From an uncultured Alphaproteobacteria bacterium (GTDB taxonomy: Bacteria > Pseudomonadota > Alphaproteobacteria > RF32 > CAG-239): a DNA stretch of 61,282 bases. Positions 9,837-23,537 of this stretch are shown here, in pieces (positions within the stretch are counted from its first letter, which is position 1; every line of letters starts with the position of its first letter). The DNA is taken from contig CALXPZ010000101.1 in the NCBI GenBank assembly GCA_944390375.1, positions 1-61,282 of the forward strand, in the 5' to 3' direction. Below the pieces are notes generated by a model. It saw only the letters and a program-made list of their open reading frames with translations. It made no database searches and was not told where the DNA came from. A program made the position numbers and the translations under genes.

Positions 9837-11225
9837 ATGCCGGAAATGTATTTGCACAACACATTAAAACGCCGCAAAGAAAAATTTGTGCCCCTGGATG
9901 AAAAAAATGTCCGTATGTATGTCTGCGGTCCCACGGTTTATGACCGGGCGCACCTGGGCAATGCCAAATCCGCGGTTGTTTTTGACGTGCTTAACCGTGT
10001 TTTGCGCGCGGTTTACGGCAAAGATCATGTAACTTATGTGTCCAACATCACCGATATAGACGATAAAATTTTAAACAAACATCAGGAAACCGGACGCCCG
10101 ATCAGCGAAATTACCCGCGAAACATATCAGTGGTATCTGGACGATATGCATGCGTTGAATGTGGCGGATCCCGATTACCGCCCGCGGGCAACCGAATTTG
10201 TAAACGAGATGATCGAACTGGTTGAGCTTTTGCTTAAAAACGGTCATGCCTATGAGGCAAACGGTCATGTTTTGTTTTCGGTCGATTCGATGCCGAATTA
10301 CGGCTTTCTTTCCGGCCGCAGCATGAAAGAGATGCTGGCCGGCGCCCGTATTGAGGTTGCCGATTACAAGAAAAATCCGGCCGATTTCATTTTGTGGAAA
10401 CCGTCCGAAGACGGACAGCCCGGCTGGGACAGCCCGTGGGGCTACGGTCGTCCGGGCTGGCATTTGGAATGCTCTGCCATGAGTTCAAAATATCTCGGCA
10501 ACTCTTTTGATATCCATGGCGGCGGCGCCGATTTGATTTTCCCGCATCACGAGAACGAGTGCGCTCAGTCTTTGTGCGCCCACCCGGGAGAAACTTTTGC
10601 CCGCTACTGGGTTCATGCCGGTATGTTGATGGTTGACGGTGTTAAAATGTCCAAATCGCTCGGCAATTTTTATACCGTAAACCAGCTGATCGGCGAATAT
10701 CCGGCGGAAGCGCTCCGGCTTTTGTTTATCAGTACCCACTATCACCAGCCGTTTAATTTTACCTTTGAGGGGTTAAAGCAGGCCAAATCGGTGCTGGATA
10801 AATTTTATAACGCCCTCTTAAAGGTATCTGCCCTGCCGGTCAATGCGGAAAATACGCGTCCGGACGAGCGGGTGCTGGAAGCTTTGTGCGATGACCTGAA
10901 TACCCCGCTGGCGCTTTCTTATCTCCACGAAATCGTCAATAACCTGAACAAAGCGGAGCAGCCGGAAGAACAGAAAAAATACAAAGCCGTTCTGCTGGCC
11001 TCGGCCGGTGTAATGGGGCTCTTGTACCAGGATCCCGAAAAATGGTTCAAACAGGGAAGCGGCAGCACTGTTGACGAAGAAGAAATCAATCGGCTGATAG
11101 AAGAACGTGCCGCCGCCAAAAAAGAAAAGAACTATGCCCGTGCGGACGAAATCCGCGGTCAACTCAAGGAGGCCGGTATCGTACTGGAAGACACGCCTGC
11201 CGGCACCACCTGGAAAAGGCTCTGA
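9837..11225 (+). CDS. cysS: Cysteinyl-tRNA synthetase
   Basis: [17 protein letters not shown], the WHLECSAM zinc site, and [14 protein letters not shown] lies before ATG 9837. Confidence 0.95.
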
Positions 11226-15947: not shown

Positions 15948-17849
15948 TTAATTTTTTAATGCCCGCAGCGAATTGGCAACCGCCAGCAGCGCCACTCCGA
16001 CATCGGCAAACACGGCGCCCCACATGGTTACCGCTCCGAAAGCGCCAAATACAAGAAACAGCGCTTTGACACCCAAGGCAAAAACAATGTTCTGGCGGAC
16101 GATGTTCATGGTTTTGCGGGCAATGCGTACGGCCAGCGGCACTTTTCCGGGATCATCGTCCATAATGACAGCATCGGCCGCTTCAATGGCTGCGTCGGAA
16201 CCGAGCCCGCCCATTGCGATACCGGTGTCCGCCCGGGTCAGCACGGGAGCGTCGTTGATGCCGTCGCCGGCAAAAATAACGGTGCCGTTTTTCTTCTCAC
16301 AGATCAGTTCTTCCAGCTTTTCCACTTTGCCGGCCGGCAGCAGTCCGGCATAAAAACGGTCGATTCCGAGTTCGGCGGCAACCGGTGCGGCGGCTTTGCG
16401 GGTATCGCCGGTCAGCATCACGCTTTCAATACCGAGATTTTTTAATTCCCGCACGGCGTCGGCCGCGTCCTCTTTGGGGGCATCGGCTATGACAATGGCG
16501 CCGAGATAGCGGCGGTCTTCGGCCACGTAAACAACGGTGCCGCCGCCCGCGGTTTCGGATGGAACCGGGACGGAAAACTCTTTCATCAATCCGAGATTGC
16601 CGGCAAGGATTTCCTTTTTTCCCTTTTGCACGCAGACACCGCGGCCGGTCAGCTCTTCCGCCTTGCCGTCGTTGCAGAGGTCCTCCGTTGTTCCGGCGGC
16701 CTTGCGGATGGAAACGGCGATCGGGTGGTTAGAAATGCTTTCTGCCGCCGCGGCCGTTTGCAGCAGCCGTTGTTCGTCAATGCCTTCTGCCGGCAGCAGC
16801 CGGCTGACCGCAAAAGTACCGCGGGTGAGGGTGCCGGTCTTGTCAAAAACGGCGGTACGGCAGCGGGCAAGCGCCTCCAGATAATTGCTGCCTTTAATCA
16901 GAATACCCTGACGCGAGGCGCCGCCGATGCCGGCAAAAAAGCCGAGCGGCACCGAGATAACCAAAGCGCAGGGGCAGGAAATAACCAAAAAGGTGAGCGC
17001 CCGCTTAAACCAGACCTCAAAATCCGCACCGTTTAAAAGCAGCGGCGGCAGCACGGCCAGCATAACGGCGGCGGCAACGACCGCCGGCGTATAATAGCGG
17101 GCAAAACGGGTGATAAATTTTTCCGTGCGCGCTTTGCGGGCGTCGGCGTGTTCGACCAGTTCCAGGATTTTGGCCGCGGTCGATTCGCCGTAAATGCGGC
17201 TGACTCTGATTTTAAGCAGGCCGTTGGTATTGATGAATCCGCTGAGCGCTTCGCTTCCCGGTTTGAGCATACGCGGCAGCGATTCGCCGGTCAGAGCCGA
17301 GGTGTCGGCCGTGGCTTCTCCTTCGGTAACAATACCGTCAAGCGGCACTTTTTCGCCGCTTTTAACAACAATGATATCGCCGACGGCAATTTCTTCCGGC
17401 TTGTGTTTGACCGGTTTTCCGTTTTCTTCGCGGAAAGCAGCGTCGGGACGGATGTCCATCAGATCCGCAATCGAACGCCGGGATTTCTCAACGGCCCGGT
17501 GCTGCAAAAATTCACCGCTCTGATACAAAATCATCACCATTGCCGCTTCCGGATATTCGCCGACCGCGAGTGCGCCGATGGTGGCAATCGACATCAGGGC
17601 GTTTTCGTCCATCCATTCGCCGTGGGCAAGATTTTTTAAGGCCTGCCAGACAATGTCCGCACCGGCGGTAAGAAAGGCTGCCGCAAACAACGCCGCGGAT
17701 ATCGTTTTCGGCAAAATCCCGCAGACGGCGGCGGCAAACAGCAATACGGCCAGCCCGATTCGCGGCAATATGTAATCTTTCTGCCCGTGGTGATGATGGC
17801 AGCAGCTTTCGGAGTCGTGTTCATGACAATGGTTGTGTTGTTCGGACAT
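15948..17849 (-). CDS. P1B-type heavy-metal (Zn/Cd/Co-class) translocating ATPase
   Basis: The TM CPC motif (VISCPCALV), DKTGTLT, SNHPIA and GDGINDAP are present. The N-terminus is His/Cys-rich (HNHCHEHDSESCCHHHHG) and there is no HMA domain. Confidence 0.9.
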   Translation of the reverse strand: MSEQHNHCHEHDSESCCHHHHGQKDYILPRIGLAVLLFAAAVCGILPKTISAALFAAAFLTAGADIVWQALKNLAHGEWMDENALMSIATIGALAVGEYPEAAMVMILYQSGEFLQHRAVEKSRRSIADLMDIRPDAAFREENGKPVKHKPEEIAVGDIIVVKSGEKVPLDGIVTEGEATADTSALTGESLPRMLKPGSEALSGFINTNGLLKIRVSRIYGESTAAKILELVEHADARKARTEKFITRFARYYTPAVVAAAVMLAVLPPLLLNGADFEVWFKRALTFLVISCPCALVISVPLGFFAGIGGASRQGILIKGSNYLEALARCRTAVFDKTGTLTRGTFAVSRLLPAEGIDEQRLLQTAAAAESISNHPIAVSIRKAAGTTEDLCNDGKAEELTGRGVCVQKGKKEILAGNLGLMKEFSVPVPSETAGGGTVVYVAEDRRYLGAIVIADAPKEDAADAVRELKNLGIESVMLTGDTRKAAAPVAAELGIDRFYAGLLPAGKVEKLEELICEKKNGTVIFAGDGINDAPVLTRADTGIAMGGLGSDAAIEAADAVIMDDDPGKVPLAVRIARKTMNIVRQNIVFALGVKALFLVFGAFGAVTMWGAVFADVGVALLAVANSLRALKN

Positions 17850-17903
17850 AGTCTTTTCCTCTGTAATATGAATACTTGTTCAATCGTTATATGTTTATCA
17901 TAA

Positions 17904-17919
17904 TTGAACAGATGTTCAA
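17904..17919. promoter_or_regulatory. ArsR/SmtB-type operator (perfect 7-2-7 inverted repeat)
   Basis: TTGAACA-GA-TGTTCAA lies in the divergent intergenic region. A second imperfect site TGAATA-CT-TGTTCA is at 17869-17882. Confidence 0.6.
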
Positions 17920-17985
17920 CTGTCAACAAAAAACTTGCGTTCCCGGTGATTTTTCTTTATTCTTCAAAAGAACAAAGGAGTAACC

Positions 17986-18327
17986 ATGTCCAAGTCAAAT
18001 ATGCCCCTGCCGGCCGCGCCGGTTGAAGATATCCGTCGGCAGATGCCCGGAGAAGAATTGCTTTTCGGTCTGTCCGATTTTTTCAAAGTGATGGGCGACC
18101 CGACGCGGATCAATATTTTGTGGGCGTTGGAAAAAACGGCGCTTTGCGTCAATGATCTGGCGGCCGTGCTCAATATGAGCAACTCGGCGGTTTCTCACCA
18201 GTTAAAAATTTTACGTGTCGCCAAACTGGTGCGCGCGGTCAAAAAGGGTAAAAACGTTTATTACGAACTCAACGACGACCATGTCCGCGTGATCTGGGAA
18301 AAGGCGCTGGAACATGTCTGCGAATAG
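17986..18327 (+). CDS. ArsR/SmtB-family metal-responsive repressor
   Basis: The winged-helix segment FKVMGDPTRINILWAL...CVNDLA..L.MS.SAVSHQLKILR is present. There are C-terminal DDH..H-type ligand candidates. Confidence 0.9.
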   Translation: MSKSNMPLPAAPVEDIRRQMPGEELLFGLSDFFKVMGDPTRINILWALEKTALCVNDLAAVLNMSNSAVSHQLKILRVAKLVRAVKKGKNVYYELNDDHVRVIWEKALEHVCE

Positions 18328-18675
18328 TCAGACCGCCTGCCGCCTGATCCATTCCATAATCACATTGACGATATAAGCCTGTTCCCCGGTGGAAAGTTCC
18401 CTGCCGGCGGGAATGCCGTGCCATTTGCAAAGGCAGCCGCGGCAGCAGGTTGCGGTTGCGTGCTGGGCGATAAAAACCGGATGCCCGCGCATCGGTGTCT
18501 GTTTGCCGTCATGGGCAGGCAGAGCCGGCGCCAGTCTGCGGGCAATAAAATCTTCGGCATGCCGGCGGATTGTATCCATGCCTTTTTGGCGGATATACTC
18601 AAGTTCTTTTTCTTTCAGCCGGAAACGGCTGCGGAAGCCGGAACGGGACAGACGGTCAAAAATATCTTCTTTCAT
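18328..18675 (-). CDS. DUF4186-domain protein
   Basis: The motif DGKQTPMRGHPVFIAQHATATCCRGCLCKWHGI is characteristic of DUF4186. The start is trimmed to ATG 18675 because a terminator lies inside the longer track ORF. Confidence 0.75.
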   Translation of the reverse strand: MKEDIFDRLSRSGFRSRFRLKEKELEYIRQKGMDTIRRHAEDFIARRLAPALPAHDGKQTPMRGHPVFIAQHATATCCRGCLCKWHGIPAGRELSTGEQAYIVNVIMEWIRRQAV

Positions 18676-18732
18676 AATGTCATCAACAGTAAAACGAATT
18701 AAAATTTTTGTAAAGGGAGAGGGCATTAAAAC

Positions 18733-18756
18733 AAAAAAAGCCCCGCAGACCGAGGC
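18733..18756 (-). terminator. Intrinsic terminator
   Basis: On the minus strand: GCCTCGGtctgCGGGGC hairpin plus T7. Confidence 0.5.
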
Positions 18757-18770
18757 TATTTTCATCATTG

Positions 18771-19131: not shown

Positions 19132-19950
19132 TTACTCAAACGGAATGCTCCCATCGGCAATAATCTGCCGCATCAGGGCAACCGCGCGGTATCTTTCCCA
19201 ATCGCGGATAACATAAAGATATTCTTTATTGTCCCGCATTTCGTACACGCCTTGTGATGCCACGACATAGCAGAAATTCCGGTGTCCGTACAGACAGCCG
19301 AAAAGTCCCATATGCGTCAGGGAGTTTCTCAGCTCGTCGCAATATTTTGCAGGCACCAGTTTTGTGCGGAAAGGAATTTGAGAATGCTCTGCGCAGAAAG
19401 GATCCGGGCAGGACACATACAGCTTTTCGCCGCAGCTGATGATAACGGCAAAATTGCTGACAACCGGGATGTTGTTTTCGCTTTTATATACAAAAAAACT
19501 TTCTTTGCCTGCATGGGCAAAAACGATAACCGTCATAACAATCAGCGCCAGCCGTGTCAGCCAGCCGTTTCTCATCAGGTTTTTTCTTATGCCGCCGCTG
19601 AAGACGAATTCACCGAGGATTTCCATCCCGGCTCCCAGCAAAAAACCGAAACAGAGGTCAAACATCCTGCCGCCGGCCGGATCATTTGCATCAAGTCCGC
19701 CGCCGGAAACAAGTCCGTAAAAGCAGAAACAGACGGCCCAACAAAGAATGGTTGTGATAAAAGTAAGGATTTTATCAGCTTTGATCCTGGCCGAAACATA
19801 AAAAAAAGCTGCTCCCAAAGCTATTCCGAAGAGCATACCTAAAAAGTTTACAGTAAAAACCGGTATCATAATTGTAATTTTTAATGATATGAAAAATAAA
19901 ATTATTTGCATCAGAGAATATAAACTTTGACAAATTTTTGTCAGGTGCAA
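19132..19950 (-). CDS. Hypothetical polytopic membrane protein with Cys-rich soluble C-terminal domain
   Basis: About 5 hydrophobic helices, then a C-terminal ~110 aa containing CGEKLYVSCPDPFCAEH. The true start is probably ATG 19911 or 19869, because the track start is TTG. Confidence 0.6.
   Translation of the reverse strand: MHLTKICQSLYSLMQIILFFISLKITIMIPVFTVNFLGMLFGIALGAAFFYVSARIKADKILTFITTILCWAVCFCFYGLVSGGGLDANDPAGGRMFDLCFGFLLGAGMEILGEFVFSGGIRKNLMRNGWLTRLALIVMTVIVFAHAGKESFFVYKSENNIPVVSNFAVIISCGEKLYVSCPDPFCAEHSQIPFRTKLVPAKYCDELRNSLTHMGLFGCLYGHRNFCYVVASQGVYEMRDNKEYLYVIRDWERYRAVALMRQIIADGSIPFE
19928..19943. promoter_or_regulatory. Perfect 6-4-6 palindrome, candidate operator
   Basis: TGACAA-ATTT-TTGTCA lies in the divergent region between the membrane-protein gene and the XRE gene. 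Confidence 0.35.
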
Positions 19951-20203
19951 AATAAAACCGGCGGTTGCCGAAAAATCACCAAAAGAGATAAAACGGGAAA
20001 GTGGATTTTGTTATCCTCCCCCATATCGGTCGGCGCTGTTTAACACACTGATTGTGAACCGGAAATTACTTTTTGTTTCAAAGAATAAGTTTTGGTTCTG
20101 TCCTTTTTGTTTAAGCGTATTGAAGGCGCTGAAAAGAACGGAAACTCCGGTTGCATCTTCAAAAAAATATTACTAAATTTAGATTAAATAATCGTTTGGG
20201 GAC

Positions 20204-20932
20204 ATGCACATAATGACCGATGGTAATTTATCTTTTGAAACAGAAAAATGTCTGATTTTCGGCAAGGGGAACAAAGTCCGAAACCTGAGGATGCTCAAAA
20301 AGCTGACTCCCGGGGAATTGGCCGACCTGGCCGACGTTCCCGAAGAATATGTTGAATCGGTTGAACATCAAAAAACAGAACAGATAGATACAAATTTAAC
20401 ACAAATTGCCAATGCCTTAAATATTGATGTTGAATTGTTGCTGGATTCATCAATGTGTCTTGATAATCATGATATGTATTTACTGCATACCATACTGCAA
20501 AATCACAAAACAGAATTAAACCTTGCGCAGCTTCAAACGCAAATTATGAATTTGATAAATATTATTTTGTACAATAACCGAAAACATTGGGCTGAAATGC
20601 GTAAAAATTCCATTTCTGTCTTATGTAAATTTGAAAGAAGAAATTGCGCCCGCAACGCCAGAAAATCAAGAGATGAAAAATATGCTCCTTTTAGGGAATA
20701 TTTTAAGCAGGTGCAATATGAAAGATTTATGCAATATCATCGGGCCGGCAAAATGTTATCGGCCAATTCGTTTGCGATGTGGTATCTGGCGCACAAATCA
20801 GAGGAAATGCCGATCCCTTATGTAAAACAGAATATTGTCAATAAATTGGTGCAATTAGCGCAGAAAAATAACCGGGAATTCAAAAAGCTTCTACGCGTAG
20901 AAGCTGACGGCTCTGTCGTTGCGGCTGATTGA
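20204..20932 (+). CDS. XRE-family helix-turn-helix protein with unknown ~170-aa C-terminal domain
   Basis: HTH segment VRNLRMLKKLTPGELADLADVPEEYVESVEHQKTEQIDTNLTQIANALNIDVELLL. Confidence 0.8.
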   Translation: MHIMTDGNLSFETEKCLIFGKGNKVRNLRMLKKLTPGELADLADVPEEYVESVEHQKTEQIDTNLTQIANALNIDVELLLDSSMCLDNHDMYLLHTILQNHKTELNLAQLQTQIMNLINIILYNNRKHWAEMRKNSISVLCKFERRNCARNARKSRDEKYAPFREYFKQVQYERFMQYHRAGKMLSANSFAMWYLAHKSEEMPIPYVKQNIVNKLVQLAQKNNREFKKLLRVEADGSVVAAD

Positions 20933-20991
20933 TTCTGAGACGAAATATTTGTAATCTGTGCTCCTATGGATAACATTGACGGAGCAAGAAA

Positions 20992-21861
20992 ATGGACTAT
21001 GAAACATATAAAAGAAAAGTAATAGAAGAAGACGAGCGTGAGCGTTTGCGCGAACTTCAAAACAAATACAACGGAATGGAAACACCGAAATATTCGGATA
21101 TGAGTCTGCGGGATGAATTGCAAATAAGGTTTGATATGGACGAACTTAACGATTTGCAGCAAAAACACGGTGCGCAACAAATACTCGAATCGGAACAACA
21201 CTTCACAACACCGGCGTATAAAACCGGTTATATGATGCCAAACGGATCTCAACAACCGGTCTCTCGGCCTTCCGCCTGGAACAATGCCCTGCGTAAAGCA
21301 GAACAACTGACTACCGGAGCTTTGGACGGGGTAAGCCTTGGTTGGGCGGATGAGCTGGAAGGAGCGGCAAGCGCTGTCGGTTACGGATTGGCAAGCCTAA
21401 ATCCAAGCTGGAACAGGACAAACGAAAGTGTTTGGGACGCAATGAAACGGGGCTATGTCCAAGGGCGTGATAATCGGCGGCAGGTTTTGGCTGAGGGACT
21501 GCAGGAAAATCCCACGGCGACAACGGTTGCCCAAATGGTGGGAGCTTTCGCGTCGCCGATTAAGTCTTTTAGATATTCAAAAACGGCGCCTTTGTCAGTT
21601 AAAGATAAGCTAAACAAATATAATGCATATGCCAACGGTTTGATTTATGGTATTGGCTCGGGGCAGGACAGTTGGCAAAATTATGCCTGGCAAACGTTGA
21701 TTGGAATTTTAGGTAATAGAATAGGTTATCGTGCATCTCGGCAGGCTCTCGGTCGGGCAGCCAGCCCCTTAGGCCGAAGTATTTTCAACACATTAAGCGG
21801 CAGAGGGGTTGAAAGCGCTGTTGACAATATTCAAAATCAGTATCATACTTATAACAAGTAA
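20992..21861 (+). CDS. Hypothetical 289-aa protein: coiled-coil N-terminus and Gly/Ala/Ser-rich C-terminal half
   Basis: GGAG RBS 7 nt upstream. No signal peptide. The C-terminal half has small-residue, amphipathic stretches (GLIYGIGSGQDSW, LIGILGNRIGY). Confidence 0.7.
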   Translation: MDYETYKRKVIEEDERERLRELQNKYNGMETPKYSDMSLRDELQIRFDMDELNDLQQKHGAQQILESEQHFTTPAYKTGYMMPNGSQQPVSRPSAWNNALRKAEQLTTGALDGVSLGWADELEGAASAVGYGLASLNPSWNRTNESVWDAMKRGYVQGRDNRRQVLAEGLQENPTATTVAQMVGAFASPIKSFRYSKTAPLSVKDKLNKYNAYANGLIYGIGSGQDSWQNYAWQTLIGILGNRIGYRASRQALGRAASPLGRSIFNTLSGRGVESAVDNIQNQYHTYNK

Positions 21862-21883
21862 CAGTTGAAAAAAAAGGAAGGCG

Positions 21884-22186
21884 ATGCTTAAAATAGACAT
21901 CATGGCAATATTAAACTCAGTATTAAACACGATTGCGTTTATTGACAGTATTATTTTGGCTGGCTTTGCTTTATATGTGGTAGAGCGTAGCCCGGCATCG
22001 CCGATCCCGGCTTTAATATGTGCTTTTATACCTTTAGTCATTGATTCGATAATCTCGCATATTTTAATCAAAAACAAGCGGGAAGATTCTCCATATTTTA
22101 TTCCGGAACATAAATGGAAATACAATTTTCCTGTATTGGTAGGCATTCTCCTGATTATAATAGGAATCTATTTGTTTTATATGTAG
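21884..22186 (+). CDS. 100-aa three-TM protein, tandem paralog 1
   Basis: AAGGAAGG RBS and three hydrophobic helices. Confidence 0.75.
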   Translation: MLKIDIMAILNSVLNTIAFIDSIILAGFALYVVERSPASPIPALICAFIPLVIDSIISHILIKNKREDSPYFIPEHKWKYNFPVLVGILLIIIGIYLFYM

Positions 22187-22245
22187 AGGCACGACAGGAT
22201 GAAGAACAGCGGCAGGAAATCATATTTAATACAGGAGCTCAAACC

Positions 22246-22548
22246 ATGCTTAAAATAGACGTCATGGCAATATTAAACTCAGTATTAAACACGATTGCGT
22301 TTATTGACAGTATTATTTTGGCTGGCTTTGCTTTATATGTGGTAGAGCGTAGCCAGGCATCGCCGATCCCGGCTTTAATATGTCTTTTTATATCTTTTGT
22401 CGTTGATTCGATAATCTCGCATATTTTAATCAAAAACAAGCGGGAAGATTCTCTATATTTTACTCCGGAACATAAATGGAAATACAATTTTCCGATAGAT
22501 GTAGGTATTTTCCTGATTATAATAGGAATCTATTTGTTTTATATGTAG
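22246..22548 (+). CDS. 100-aa three-TM protein, tandem paralog 2
   Basis: AGGAG lies 8 nt before ATG 22246. The track ORF 22114 is an upstream read-through. It is nearly identical to paralog 1. Confidence 0.75.
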   Translation: MLKIDVMAILNSVLNTIAFIDSIILAGFALYVVERSQASPIPALICLFISFVVDSIISHILIKNKREDSLYFTPEHKWKYNFPIDVGIFLIIIGIYLFYM

Positions 22549-22607
22549 AGGCACGACAGTATGGAAAATAACGGCAGGAAATCACATTTAATATAGGAGC
22601 TCAAACC

Positions 22608-22907
22608 ATGATTAAAATAGACGTCATAACAATATTAAACTCAATATTAAAATATATTGCGTTTATTGATTGTATTATTTTGGCCGGCTTTGTTGTTTAT
22701 TTGGTAAATTTTAGCCAGGCATCGCCAATCCCGGCTTTTATATGTCTTTTTATACTTTTTGTCGTTGATTTGATAATCTTGCATATTTTAATCAAAAACA
22801 AGCGGGAAGATTCTCCATATTTTGCTCCGGGATATGGTTGGCAATATCATCTTCCGATAGATATAGGCGTTTTCCTGATTATGGCAGGAATCTATTTATT
22901 TCCTTAG
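22608..22907 (+). CDS. 99-aa three-TM protein, tandem paralog 3 (more diverged)
   Basis: It has the same RBS context (AGGAGCTCAAACCATG) and the same architecture. Confidence 0.75.
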   Translation: MIKIDVITILNSILKYIAFIDCIILAGFVVYLVNFSQASPIPAFICLFILFVVDLIILHILIKNKREDSPYFAPGYGWQYHLPIDIGVFLIMAGIYLFP

Positions 22908-22954
22908 CGGCGCGACAGTCTAAAATCGCGCGGCGTGCTACATTGTAAAAGAAA

Positions 22955-22985
22955 AACGACAGCACAAACAGCTGTCGTTTTCTGT
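22955..22985 (+). terminator. Intrinsic terminator closing the paralog array
   Basis: AACGACAGC-acaaaca-GCTGTCGTT hairpin plus TTCTGTT. It abuts the tRNA 3' end. Confidence 0.7.
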
Positions 22986-23061
22986 TGGTGAGCCCGACGG
23001 GATTCGAACCCATGACCCTTTGATTAAAAGTCAAATGCTCTACCAGCTGAGCTACGGGCCC
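22986..23061 (-). tRNA. tRNA-Lys (anticodon UUU), CCA encoded
   Basis: The reverse complement reads GGGCCCGTAGCTCAGCTGGTAGAGCATTTGACTTTTAATCAAAGGGTCATGGGTTCGAATCCCGTCGGGCTCACCA. It folds as a cloverleaf with a 7-bp acceptor stem, anticodon loop CTTTTAA and a GGTTCGAATCC T-arm. Confidence 0.95.
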
Positions 23062-23108: not shown

Positions 23109-23222
23109 AAAAAAATCAAAAAAAAATTAAAAATTATAAAAAATAGTTTATTTGTTAAGAATTGTATGTTATCATCCAACACAAATTTGATTATTAAACC
23201 TTGTTTTGAAGGATTGTTGGAG

Positions 23223-23537
23223 ATGTCAGAAACAAAGAATTCACAGCAGACCGGACGTTATGATATGCTGCAGAATGCTGCCGGCGAGATACTCATTATC
23301 ATCGAGTACCGCGAGGGCGGGCCCGAAAATCCCCGTTTGGTATATGACGGCGGCGATCAGGCTCTTCTCTACCGCAGCCGCGAAAGCGCTTTTATGCTGA
23401 ATTCTATTGCAGAGGAAGCGCGTATGCCTTTGAAATCGGTAAACGAAGTGCTTATGGTCGAAATTGAAAACGACGACGTCGCCAGAGAATATAAAGTTCC
23501 CGTCCGCGTGGTCAGAAATCTGCAGGCCTTGGCATAA
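23223..23537 (+). CDS. Small conserved hypothetical protein, paralog of 55154-55447
   Basis: PRLVYDGGDQALLYRSRESAFMLNSIAEEARMPLKSVNEVLMVEI aligns with PELVYNGSDAALLYRTASDVLVLDKLHEEAQKHLKQVSSVVIVEA. The start is uncertain (23166, 23223 or 23262). Confidence 0.6.
   Translation: MSETKNSQQTGRYDMLQNAAGEILIIIEYREGGPENPRLVYDGGDQALLYRSRESAFMLNSIAEEARMPLKSVNEVLMVEIENDDVAREYKVPVRVVRNLQALA

Follow-up and report, generated by a model that had tools for sequence, protein, structure and literature searches.

An XRE-headed gene cassette of human-gut Alphaproteobacteria as a candidate polymorphic toxin/immunity family acting at the cell envelope

Closest described systems and the cassette

Polymorphic toxins, in the definition of Zhang et al. 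(2012) as restated in PMC5576092, and colicin-like bacteriocins are the described systems closest to a gene cassette that we analyzed at positions 20149-22985 of a 61,282-nucleotide stretch of DNA (hereafter the window; contig CALXPZ010000101.1 of assembly GCA_944390375.1) from an uncultured alphaproteobacterium. The cassette comprises a promoter-like leader, a gene for an XRE-family helix-turn-helix (HTH) regulator, a gene for a protein of 289 amino acids (aa) and three tandem genes for small proteins with three transmembrane (TM) segments. From the sequence comparisons reported here, we consider it moderately probable that it represents a new polymorphic toxin/immunity (bacteriocin-like) family acting on the cell envelope in human-gut Alphaproteobacteria. 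An earlier note on this DNA had suggested either a toxin/immunity or a phage-exclusion module. The former is supported by the co-occurrence of the genes, a conserved-N/variable-C architecture, sister tips of the Tlde1 and SAA families, co-variation of the partner genes, orphan cassettes and toxin-loss alleles, and the latter found little support.

The cassette shares with polymorphic toxins a conserved N-terminus joined to variable C-terminal tips, including Tlde1 and prokaryotic SAA, a small cognate gene downstream, orphan cassettes composed of a C-terminal fragment plus an immunity gene, and polymorphism at the strain level. It differs in that the N-terminal domain is only ~60 aa long and has no recognisable link to the type V, VI or VII secretion systems (T5SS, T6SS, T7SS), MuF or Maf, in that a dedicated XRE gene heads the operon, and in that the tip of the window protein has not been described as a toxin before. 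In its architecture (conserved N-terminus, variable C-terminus, adjacent cognate ORFs, orphan cassettes) the cassette qualifies as a putative polymorphic toxin system, but it shows no recognisable delivery route.

Colicin-type bacteriocins with membrane immunity proteins, as generally known, seem the closest analogues in working mode, though non-homologous. In both cases there is no signal peptide, and an N-terminal uptake-type module, a linker and a C-terminal killing domain, the outer two putative in the cassette, follow one another; the sister effectors hit the envelope (peptidoglycan, lipid II-type substrates), like the colicin M and pesticin types; and a small polytopic inner-membrane immunity candidate stands beside the toxin gene in an operon that a repressor controls or, in the cassette, probably controls. 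Pore-forming colicins have a ten-helix pore domain with a hydrophobic hairpin and immunity proteins with three to four TM segments. However, neither the pore, T and R domains of colicins nor their immunity proteins have a homologue in the cassette (Pfam, Foldseek against PDB), no convincing TonB box could be discerned by eye in the N-terminus, there is no lysis gene, the locus is chromosomal rather than plasmid-borne, and its regulator belongs to the XRE family and not to LexA.

Two phage-related groups also resemble parts of the 289-aa protein. One is the MuF toxins of temperate phages (PMC5576092), since in the homologue P0074 the C-terminal domain follows a Phage_Mu_F domain (48.9 bits), the place that the toxin takes in this class (PMC5576092), and the domain has a phage pedigree; the window protein, however, has no MuF domain and lies outside a prophage. 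The other is the phrog_5880 family with gp57 of Myxococcus phage Mx8, which has the same ~180-aa helical domain with both of its motifs and a Gly/Ala-rich continuation. There the domain is N-terminal in structural proteins of 500-1100 aa, whereas here a 289-aa chromosomal protein carries it as C-terminal cargo, and immunity-like genes come next. By its gene content the cassette is not a MuF toxin, a toxin-antitoxin (TA) system or a catalogued defence system; among known defence systems, PADLOC matches its HTH only. Neither the N-terminal domain, nor the tip as a toxin, nor the 3-TM family is present in the domain libraries searched, no description of them was found in the literature, and those libraries returned nothing on how these gut bacteria compete.

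The features of the cassette, all on the plus strand, are as follows (ORF, open reading frame; AF2, AlphaFold2).

20149-20212: promoter/operator-like leader and left module boundary; homology to six other loci starts exactly here, with many invariant columns
20213-20932: XRE-family HTH regulator (start at 20204 in the ORF list); homologues begin at the second ATG, 20213
20992-21861: 289-aa ORF (ORF list)
20992-21180: N-terminal helical-hairpin domain, residues 1-63; two helices in AF2, common to proteins with unrelated C-termini
21181-21270: P/Q/S/T-rich low-complexity linker, residues ~64-93; low pLDDT, length and sequence vary among homologues
21271-21861: C-terminal all-helical domain with Gly-rich tail, putative toxin tip, residues ~94-289; AF2 model, conservation and phage homology
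21884-22186: 3-TM paralog 1, 100 aa, putative immunity protein; ORF list, repeat and identity, always after the 289-aa gene
22246-22548: 3-TM paralog 2, 100 aa, 89% identical to copy 1; ORF list, repeat and identity
22608-22907: 3-TM paralog 3, 99 aa, sharing 64-71% identity with copies 1 and 2; ORF list, repeat and identity
22950-22983: intrinsic-terminator hairpin with U-run, right module boundary; strong (z = -3.2), abutting the tRNA 3' end

A putative modular effector family and its strain-level variation

The N-terminal domain of the 289-aa protein defines a family in its own right and presumably has a trafficking or uptake role. When a profile built from 22 close homologues was run against 1.84 billion representative proteins, 138 clusters were obtained in three groups, namely proteins sharing the N-terminal domain only, short proteins sharing the C-terminal domain only and long proteins sharing the C-terminal domain only. 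In the first group, many proteins of 100-290 aa align over residues ~8-68 alone (consensus ..ER.RL..LQ.KY..PDYSNMSLRDELQTRFDLDELN.L.QK.G) and carry unrelated C-termini. That of P0201 is a Tlde1 domain (PF10908, 1.7e-10, 41.8 bits, over the Pfam cutoff), and those of P0154 and P0182 are SAA domains (PF00277, 8e-11 and 8e-15, 42.6 and 55.5 bits, over the cutoff); ten further C-termini align as a single SAA-like family with the pattern D.Y.H...C / KE..D / D...N..G, and P0147 has a weak phage-lysozyme match. Tlde1 is a T6SS effector that targets peptidoglycan. For prokaryotic SAA, a role as toxin tip in polymorphic toxins is published, with a predicted attack on lipid head groups (PMC12419801). 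The N-terminal domain itself is without an entry in Pfam and NCBIfam, and its profile recovered short fragments only from the indexed protein collection. A metagenome scan with this domain returned mostly one species-level lineage from human-gut metagenomes and so informs on strain variation, not on new architectures.

The small protein encoded downstream changes together with the C-terminal domain. The 289-aa type is followed by 3-TM proteins, a 266-aa type by a 133-aa TM protein, the SAA type by a Cys-rich exported or multi-TM protein and the Tlde1 type by a TM-anchored protein. This switch can be seen within one genome, where two tandem copies at locus L005 are 89% identical over residues 1-93 (92.5% at the DNA level) and 28% identical in the C-terminal domain. 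A 3-TM protein comes after one of them, and an unrelated 133-aa membrane protein after the other, which is of the 266-aa type. P0152 equals P0154 with the SAA domain precisely deleted, and the downstream 134-aa signal-anchored Cys-rich protein is kept. A homologue of the SAA-linked Cys-rich protein (1e-9) also occurs inside the 3-TM arrays of loci L007 and L010, and this arrangement is, on sequence grounds, the pattern of an immunity island.

The gene order of XRE, 289-aa protein and 3-TM gene(s) is preserved in related loci, with one to four TM copies. Scanning one genome per species gave nine loci, all in metagenome-assembled genomes of uncultured (Alpha)proteobacteria, and more were present in metagenome contigs. 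When the expectation of the earlier note that the three kinds of gene would co-occur in other genomes was checked, it held in every related locus. Some contigs or alleles are incomplete: L002 begins within the module, L004 has XRE fragments only and L008 ends inside the 289-aa gene. The module occupies differing chromosomal sites in one to two copies per genome. Within the species-level lineage from human-gut metagenomes, the number of TM copies varies from one to three, truncated copies are present and some alleles are without the XRE gene. L007 additionally contains an orphan fragment without a start codon that corresponds to the last ~80 residues of the protein, with a diverged 109-aa TM gene next to it. 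A natural toxin-loss allele was found in a sister strain (L045, GCA_949294405.1), which is 99.2-99.5% identical to the window over 20 kb and has an 898-bp in-frame deletion (at L045 10476; window 20691-21590) with CTTT microhomology. In the resulting fusion the N-terminus of XRE runs on into the final ~90 residues of the 289-aa protein; all TM genes are kept, the third being called as 70 aa only. Natural variation of this kind, in toxin loss and in the copy number of the immunity genes, suggests that strains are still in conflict within the gut.

Two further arrangements were observed in related loci. On the minus strand of L007 (5287-7831), a paralogous XRE gene precedes a 424-aa protein that has an N/Q/Y-rich N-terminus and a GH108 muramidase domain (66.9 bits), followed by a 167-aa exported protein; this is probably another effector/immunity pair. 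In L012-L015 and L034-L043 (L012 ~10001-11164), a deletion has removed the XRE gene and linked an upstream hydrolase-like gene, through its 5' part, with the 289-aa gene at codon ~30, giving a widespread allele of 376-387 aa. The hydrolase-like gene has a lipoprotein signal in L007, and the signal is apparently lost in the fusion lineage (stop 9 codons before the start).

The window protein's C-terminal domain matches no described toxin family. The 289-aa and 3-TM proteins had no match in Pfam, NCBIfam or PADLOC, in agreement with the earlier note, which had placed the 289-aa protein outside known families; scans of six proteins against Pfam, NCBIfam, PADLOC and PHROGs gave only HTH and phrog_5880 matches. 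AF2 with a shallow alignment was unusable (pLDDT 41), and the model used was obtained from a 63-sequence alignment. It is all-helical with a mean pLDDT of 75.7; the values are ~90 or higher across most of residues 11-60 and 91-170, and 81 for residues 1-10. Foldseek with this model against PDB gave no match at E<=0.001 (best 0.98). The best PDB sequence match, obtained with two profiles, was the Gly-rich stretch of the prion protein (E = 0.09), which we take as compositional. The invariant residues are G113, G117, D120, E121, G124, Y155, R159, D160, R163, P174, G184, P189, G220 and G222, and they include the invariant motifs G-x-S-x-G-x-x-D-E and Y-x-x-x-R-D-x-x-R; the tail is Gly-rich and amphipathic.

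Relatives of this domain lead to phages. Short proteins of ~250-340 aa, P0074 among them, match residues ~95-280 only and have other N-termini, and proteins of 500-1100 aa bear the domain at their own N-terminus and match phrog_5880. The domain profile matches the N-terminus of the 'virion structural protein' gp57 of Mx8 (2.5e-13), and, independently, a protein of this kind comes out on top in Foldseek against viral models. One long homologue (L016 10001-11869) stands at the end of a phage structural-gene block, and in the phage homologues the tail continues as a long Gly/Ala-rich stretch. Mx8 gp57 (L046 31525-33276) and the phrog_5880 proteins have a conserved N-terminal region of ~200 aa with the motifs G-x-S/T-x-G-x-x-D-E and Y-x-x-x-R-D-x-x-R, and the gp57-type gene is the last of the late structural block. 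Tblastn of the 289-aa protein and two long homologues against GenBank phages gave no match, and neither did IMG/VR scans. The ejection proteins gp7, gp20 and gp16 of P22 were considered as counterparts of the phage homologues and rejected, as they share no sequence similarity with them, so that 'ejection protein' is a label given by gene position only.

Given this pedigree, the cassette could be a phage remnant that serves as a superinfection-exclusion or decoy module, in which a copy of a virion domain and the membrane proteins would block phage DNA entry and the XRE protein would be a leftover repressor. The homology to Mx8 gp57, to phrog_5880 and to the protein ending a phage structural block fits such an origin, as do the low G+C of the module, the adjacency to a tRNA in two loci and the general knowledge that in P22 the membrane exclusion gene sieA directly follows the ejection-protein genes. 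Yet none of the loci examined has phage genes, an integrase or att-like repeats beside the module, the searches of GenBank phages and IMG/VR were negative, and similarity to P22 gp7, gp20 or gp16 is absent. Moreover, the same N-terminal domain bears Tlde1 and SAA toxin domains, which would be senseless as decoys, and orphan fragment-plus-immunity cassettes and toxin-loss alleles suit toxins better. We therefore regard a phage remnant as unlikely.

Putative immunity genes, regulator and proposed mode of action

The three 3-TM paralogs are the units of a 362-bp tandem repeat, with DNA identities of 95% and 81% and protein identities of 89/64/71%; the upstream extension of paralog 2 to 22114 in the ORF list is an artefact. 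Three TM segments were obtained by a simple hydropathy count in the homologous ~96-aa proteins of related loci and read by eye from the sequence in the window copies, which by eye have almost no extramembrane loops, unlike the partners of SAA- and GH108-type effectors with their sizeable exported domains. No significant PHROG match and no similarity to known immunity families (Pfam, NCBIfam) was detected. Two promoter-like matches (10 of 12) lie at 21821-21894 (+), in the 3' end of the 289-aa gene before the first TM gene; this region may be an internal promoter for the immunity genes, as far as a consensus match can indicate.

The roles could in principle be reversed, such that the 3-TM proteins are holin-like killers of an abortive-infection or stress-lysis system, the 289-aa protein serves as sensor or regulator and the XRE protein silences the operon. 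Proteins of ~100 aa with 3 TM segments are generally known to resemble holins of class I and TM effectors in defence systems; the XRE protein has its best matches among defence-associated HTH models (PADLOC HTH_VI, capH), and a paralogous XRE gene lies upstream of the GH108 muramidase gene in L007. We nevertheless hold this arrangement to be quite improbable, as the holin and effector models of PADLOC and PHROG match no protein of the cassette, the N-terminal-domain family carries bona fide toxin domains, and the 3-TM genes have been duplicated in tandem and diversified, persist where the 289-aa gene is lost and include truncated extra copies, all of which typifies immunity genes and not killers.

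The XRE protein has an HTH at residues ~18-80 followed by a conserved ~150-aa C-terminal domain of unknown fold, and is 70-73% identical across six loci. The HTH call of the earlier note was borne out at modest scores (PADLOC HTH_VI 8e-8; PHROG regulators 1.5e-5; 434 repressor, C.AhdI and SinR in PDB), and the Pfam HTH_3 match falls under the cutoff. The paralog upstream of the GH108 effector in L007 is 41% identical in a full-length alignment and, by tblastn, 50% over the C-terminal domain. The gene is frameshifted in L005 and L010. Since widespread alleles without the XRE gene retain the C-terminal domain and the TM gene, the XRE protein is, from its distribution, a regulator and not an antitoxin. 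A type II TA system with an XRE antitoxin was rejected, the XRE gene being dispensable in common alleles and missing upstream of the other N-domain effectors. The leader contains TTGCAT (20151-20156), a 17-nt spacer, TAAATT (20174-20179) and a GGGGA ribosome-binding site, with a palindrome, CTAAATTTAG, at 20173-20182 overlapping the -10 element. It scores below the threshold of a consensus promoter scanner; we infer from its layout that it acts as promoter and operator.

On this basis, a mode of action can be proposed for a toxin/immunity cassette. The XRE protein would probably repress the operon from the palindrome overlapping the -10 element. The N-terminal ~60-aa helical domain presumably serves for export from the producing cell or for entry into the target cell, and the flexible linker would join it to an exchangeable C-terminal helical domain that carries the activity. 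This domain most likely acts on the cytoplasmic membrane or envelope of the target. The recognisable sister domains (Tlde1, SAA-like, lysozyme-like) and the GH108 domain of L007 are envelope-acting from outside the cytoplasm and their partners are exported or membrane-bound, and it is by analogy with them that a target at the envelope is proposed for the window protein. The leading guess is that the Gly-rich helical domain inserts into the membrane and causes pore formation or depolarisation. Immunity proteins of pore-forming colicins neutralise their toxins within the membrane. By analogy, the near absence of loops in the 3-TM proteins suggests neutralisation within the bilayer, which makes membrane insertion or a pore the first choice. 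A second guess is a lipid- or peptidoglycan-directed enzyme that would use the invariant D-E, Y and R-D-R residues, for example on lipid carriers. The three 3-TM proteins would be cognate inner-membrane immunity proteins that neutralise the toxin in the plane of the membrane, and, as these genes are amplified and diversified, they may also protect against variants from neighbouring strains.

Several points weigh against a toxin/immunity function. The 289-aa protein lacks a signal peptide, and the ±10 kb flanks of the loci with Pfam annotation showed no genes for secretion systems, lysis or receptors. The C-terminal domain matches no known toxin or pore fold (Pfam, NCBIfam, PDB sequence, Foldseek against PDB), and the last ~70 residues of its AF2 model are of low confidence. 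Its conserved charged motifs and its N-terminal place in phage structural proteins could mean a non-toxic role in assembly or targeting, and the XRE gene is a feature not shared by the other N-domain effectors. More tentatively, it is possible that the N-terminal domain is an unrecognised delivery route (export or colicin-like uptake) for a family of envelope toxins, one tip of which is a membrane-active domain that was acquired from virion proteins of phages (ejection-type).

A lineage-specific envelope or stress operon without a role in conflict, whose polymorphism would reflect domain shuffling and decay in small AT-rich genomes, would suit conserved polar motifs as in a housekeeping-type enzyme and the decayed alleles (frameshifted XRE in L005 and L010, fusions, deletions), but has little probability in view of the differing chromosomal sites with one to two copies per genome, the copy number that varies within a species, the sister proteins with Tlde1 and SAA toxin tips and the sharp switch from 89% to 28% identity in one genome, which is not ordinary decay. 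The co-variation of partner genes with the C-terminal domain, the orphan cassettes and the alleles without the toxin but with the immunity genes speak against all three alternatives (phage remnant, reversed roles, non-conflict operon).

If the toxin/immunity reading is true, the cassette would represent a new polymorphic-toxin family with its own trafficking domain and a new toxin tip paired with a tiny membrane immunity family, and it would link interbacterial toxins to a widespread uncharacterised phage virion domain (phrog_5880, Mx8 gp57). This link offers a testable handle on the role of the domain at the cell envelope. If the tip is indeed of the ejection type, the 3-TM proteins would work like superinfection-exclusion proteins, and the function of the domain could be tested in Mx8.

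Cassette boundaries and neighbouring genes

Two features adjoin the cassette in the window.

19132-19950, minus strand: 272-aa polytopic membrane protein with a Cys-rich C-terminal domain (ORF list)
22986-23061, minus strand: tRNA-Lys(UUU) (ARAGORN)

Every gene reported in the earlier note is present in the ORF list of the window, and the low G+C of the block and its terminator adjoining tRNA-Lys were confirmed as well (ORF list, ARAGORN, G+C, hairpin scan). The conserved unit, as delimited by homology, is nevertheless narrower than the block first described, and consists of promoter, XRE regulator, 289-aa protein and 3-TM genes at 20149-22985. This delimitation follows from the DNA homology to the window, which in six loci has a sharp left edge at 20149, the promoter -35, and from the flanking genes (the 272-aa membrane gene, Cd/Zn ATPase, ArsR, DUF4186 and Nuo-like genes and the tRNA), which elsewhere are unlinked to the module. 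The 272-aa protein, initially counted in the module, has no copy in any other module locus and is for that reason excluded as a component of the system; it has no family match and a G+C of 0.446, and we regard it as an unrelated orphan neighbour.

G+C is 0.394 in 20149-22985 and 0.489 in the remaining window, where some other 1-kb bins are equally low (0.39-0.40). Since the modules in lower-G+C relatives have values of 0.335-0.358, the window module lies between these and its host (0.49), which is consistent with lateral acquisition. Judging from its surroundings, the module is a movable cassette and not a recognisable integrative element. The position beside a tRNA, treated as a feature in the earlier note, proved not to be conserved: only two of ~10 distinct sites adjoin a tRNA, and these are different (tRNA-Lys in the window and tRNA-Pro at one other locus). 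An integrative element at a tRNA was accordingly rejected, as neither an integrase nor att-like or flanking direct repeats were found at the module loci examined.

An empty-site allele was sought and not found, and three other assemblies break exactly at the locus. In L054, L055 and L056, the contigs stop at the tRNA/module junction, 64-208 bp upstream of the sequence homologous to window 23223. Such breaks in three independent assemblies of close relatives are consistent with tandem repeats or strain heterogeneity at this locus.

In one lineage (L012 12009-21164), a variable island with a DUF234 ATPase, integrase/resolvase fragments, an Mrr-like nuclease, and ankyrin-repeat and SHOCT proteins lies immediately downstream of the module; the corresponding site of L015 has other content. 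Positions 15948-18762 of the window are an ordinary metal-resistance neighbourhood, also present in the sister strain L045, which consists of a 633-aa P-type ATPase of the Cd/Zn type, a divergent 113-aa ArsR/SmtB regulator and a protein with a DUF4186 match (Pfam 1e-53). On the other side, a small conserved protein of 104-123 aa without a family match (23166-23537, +) lies between tRNA-Lys and genes for Nuo/Mrp-like membrane subunits, and the 551-aa protein that comes after it has no Pfam match on record.

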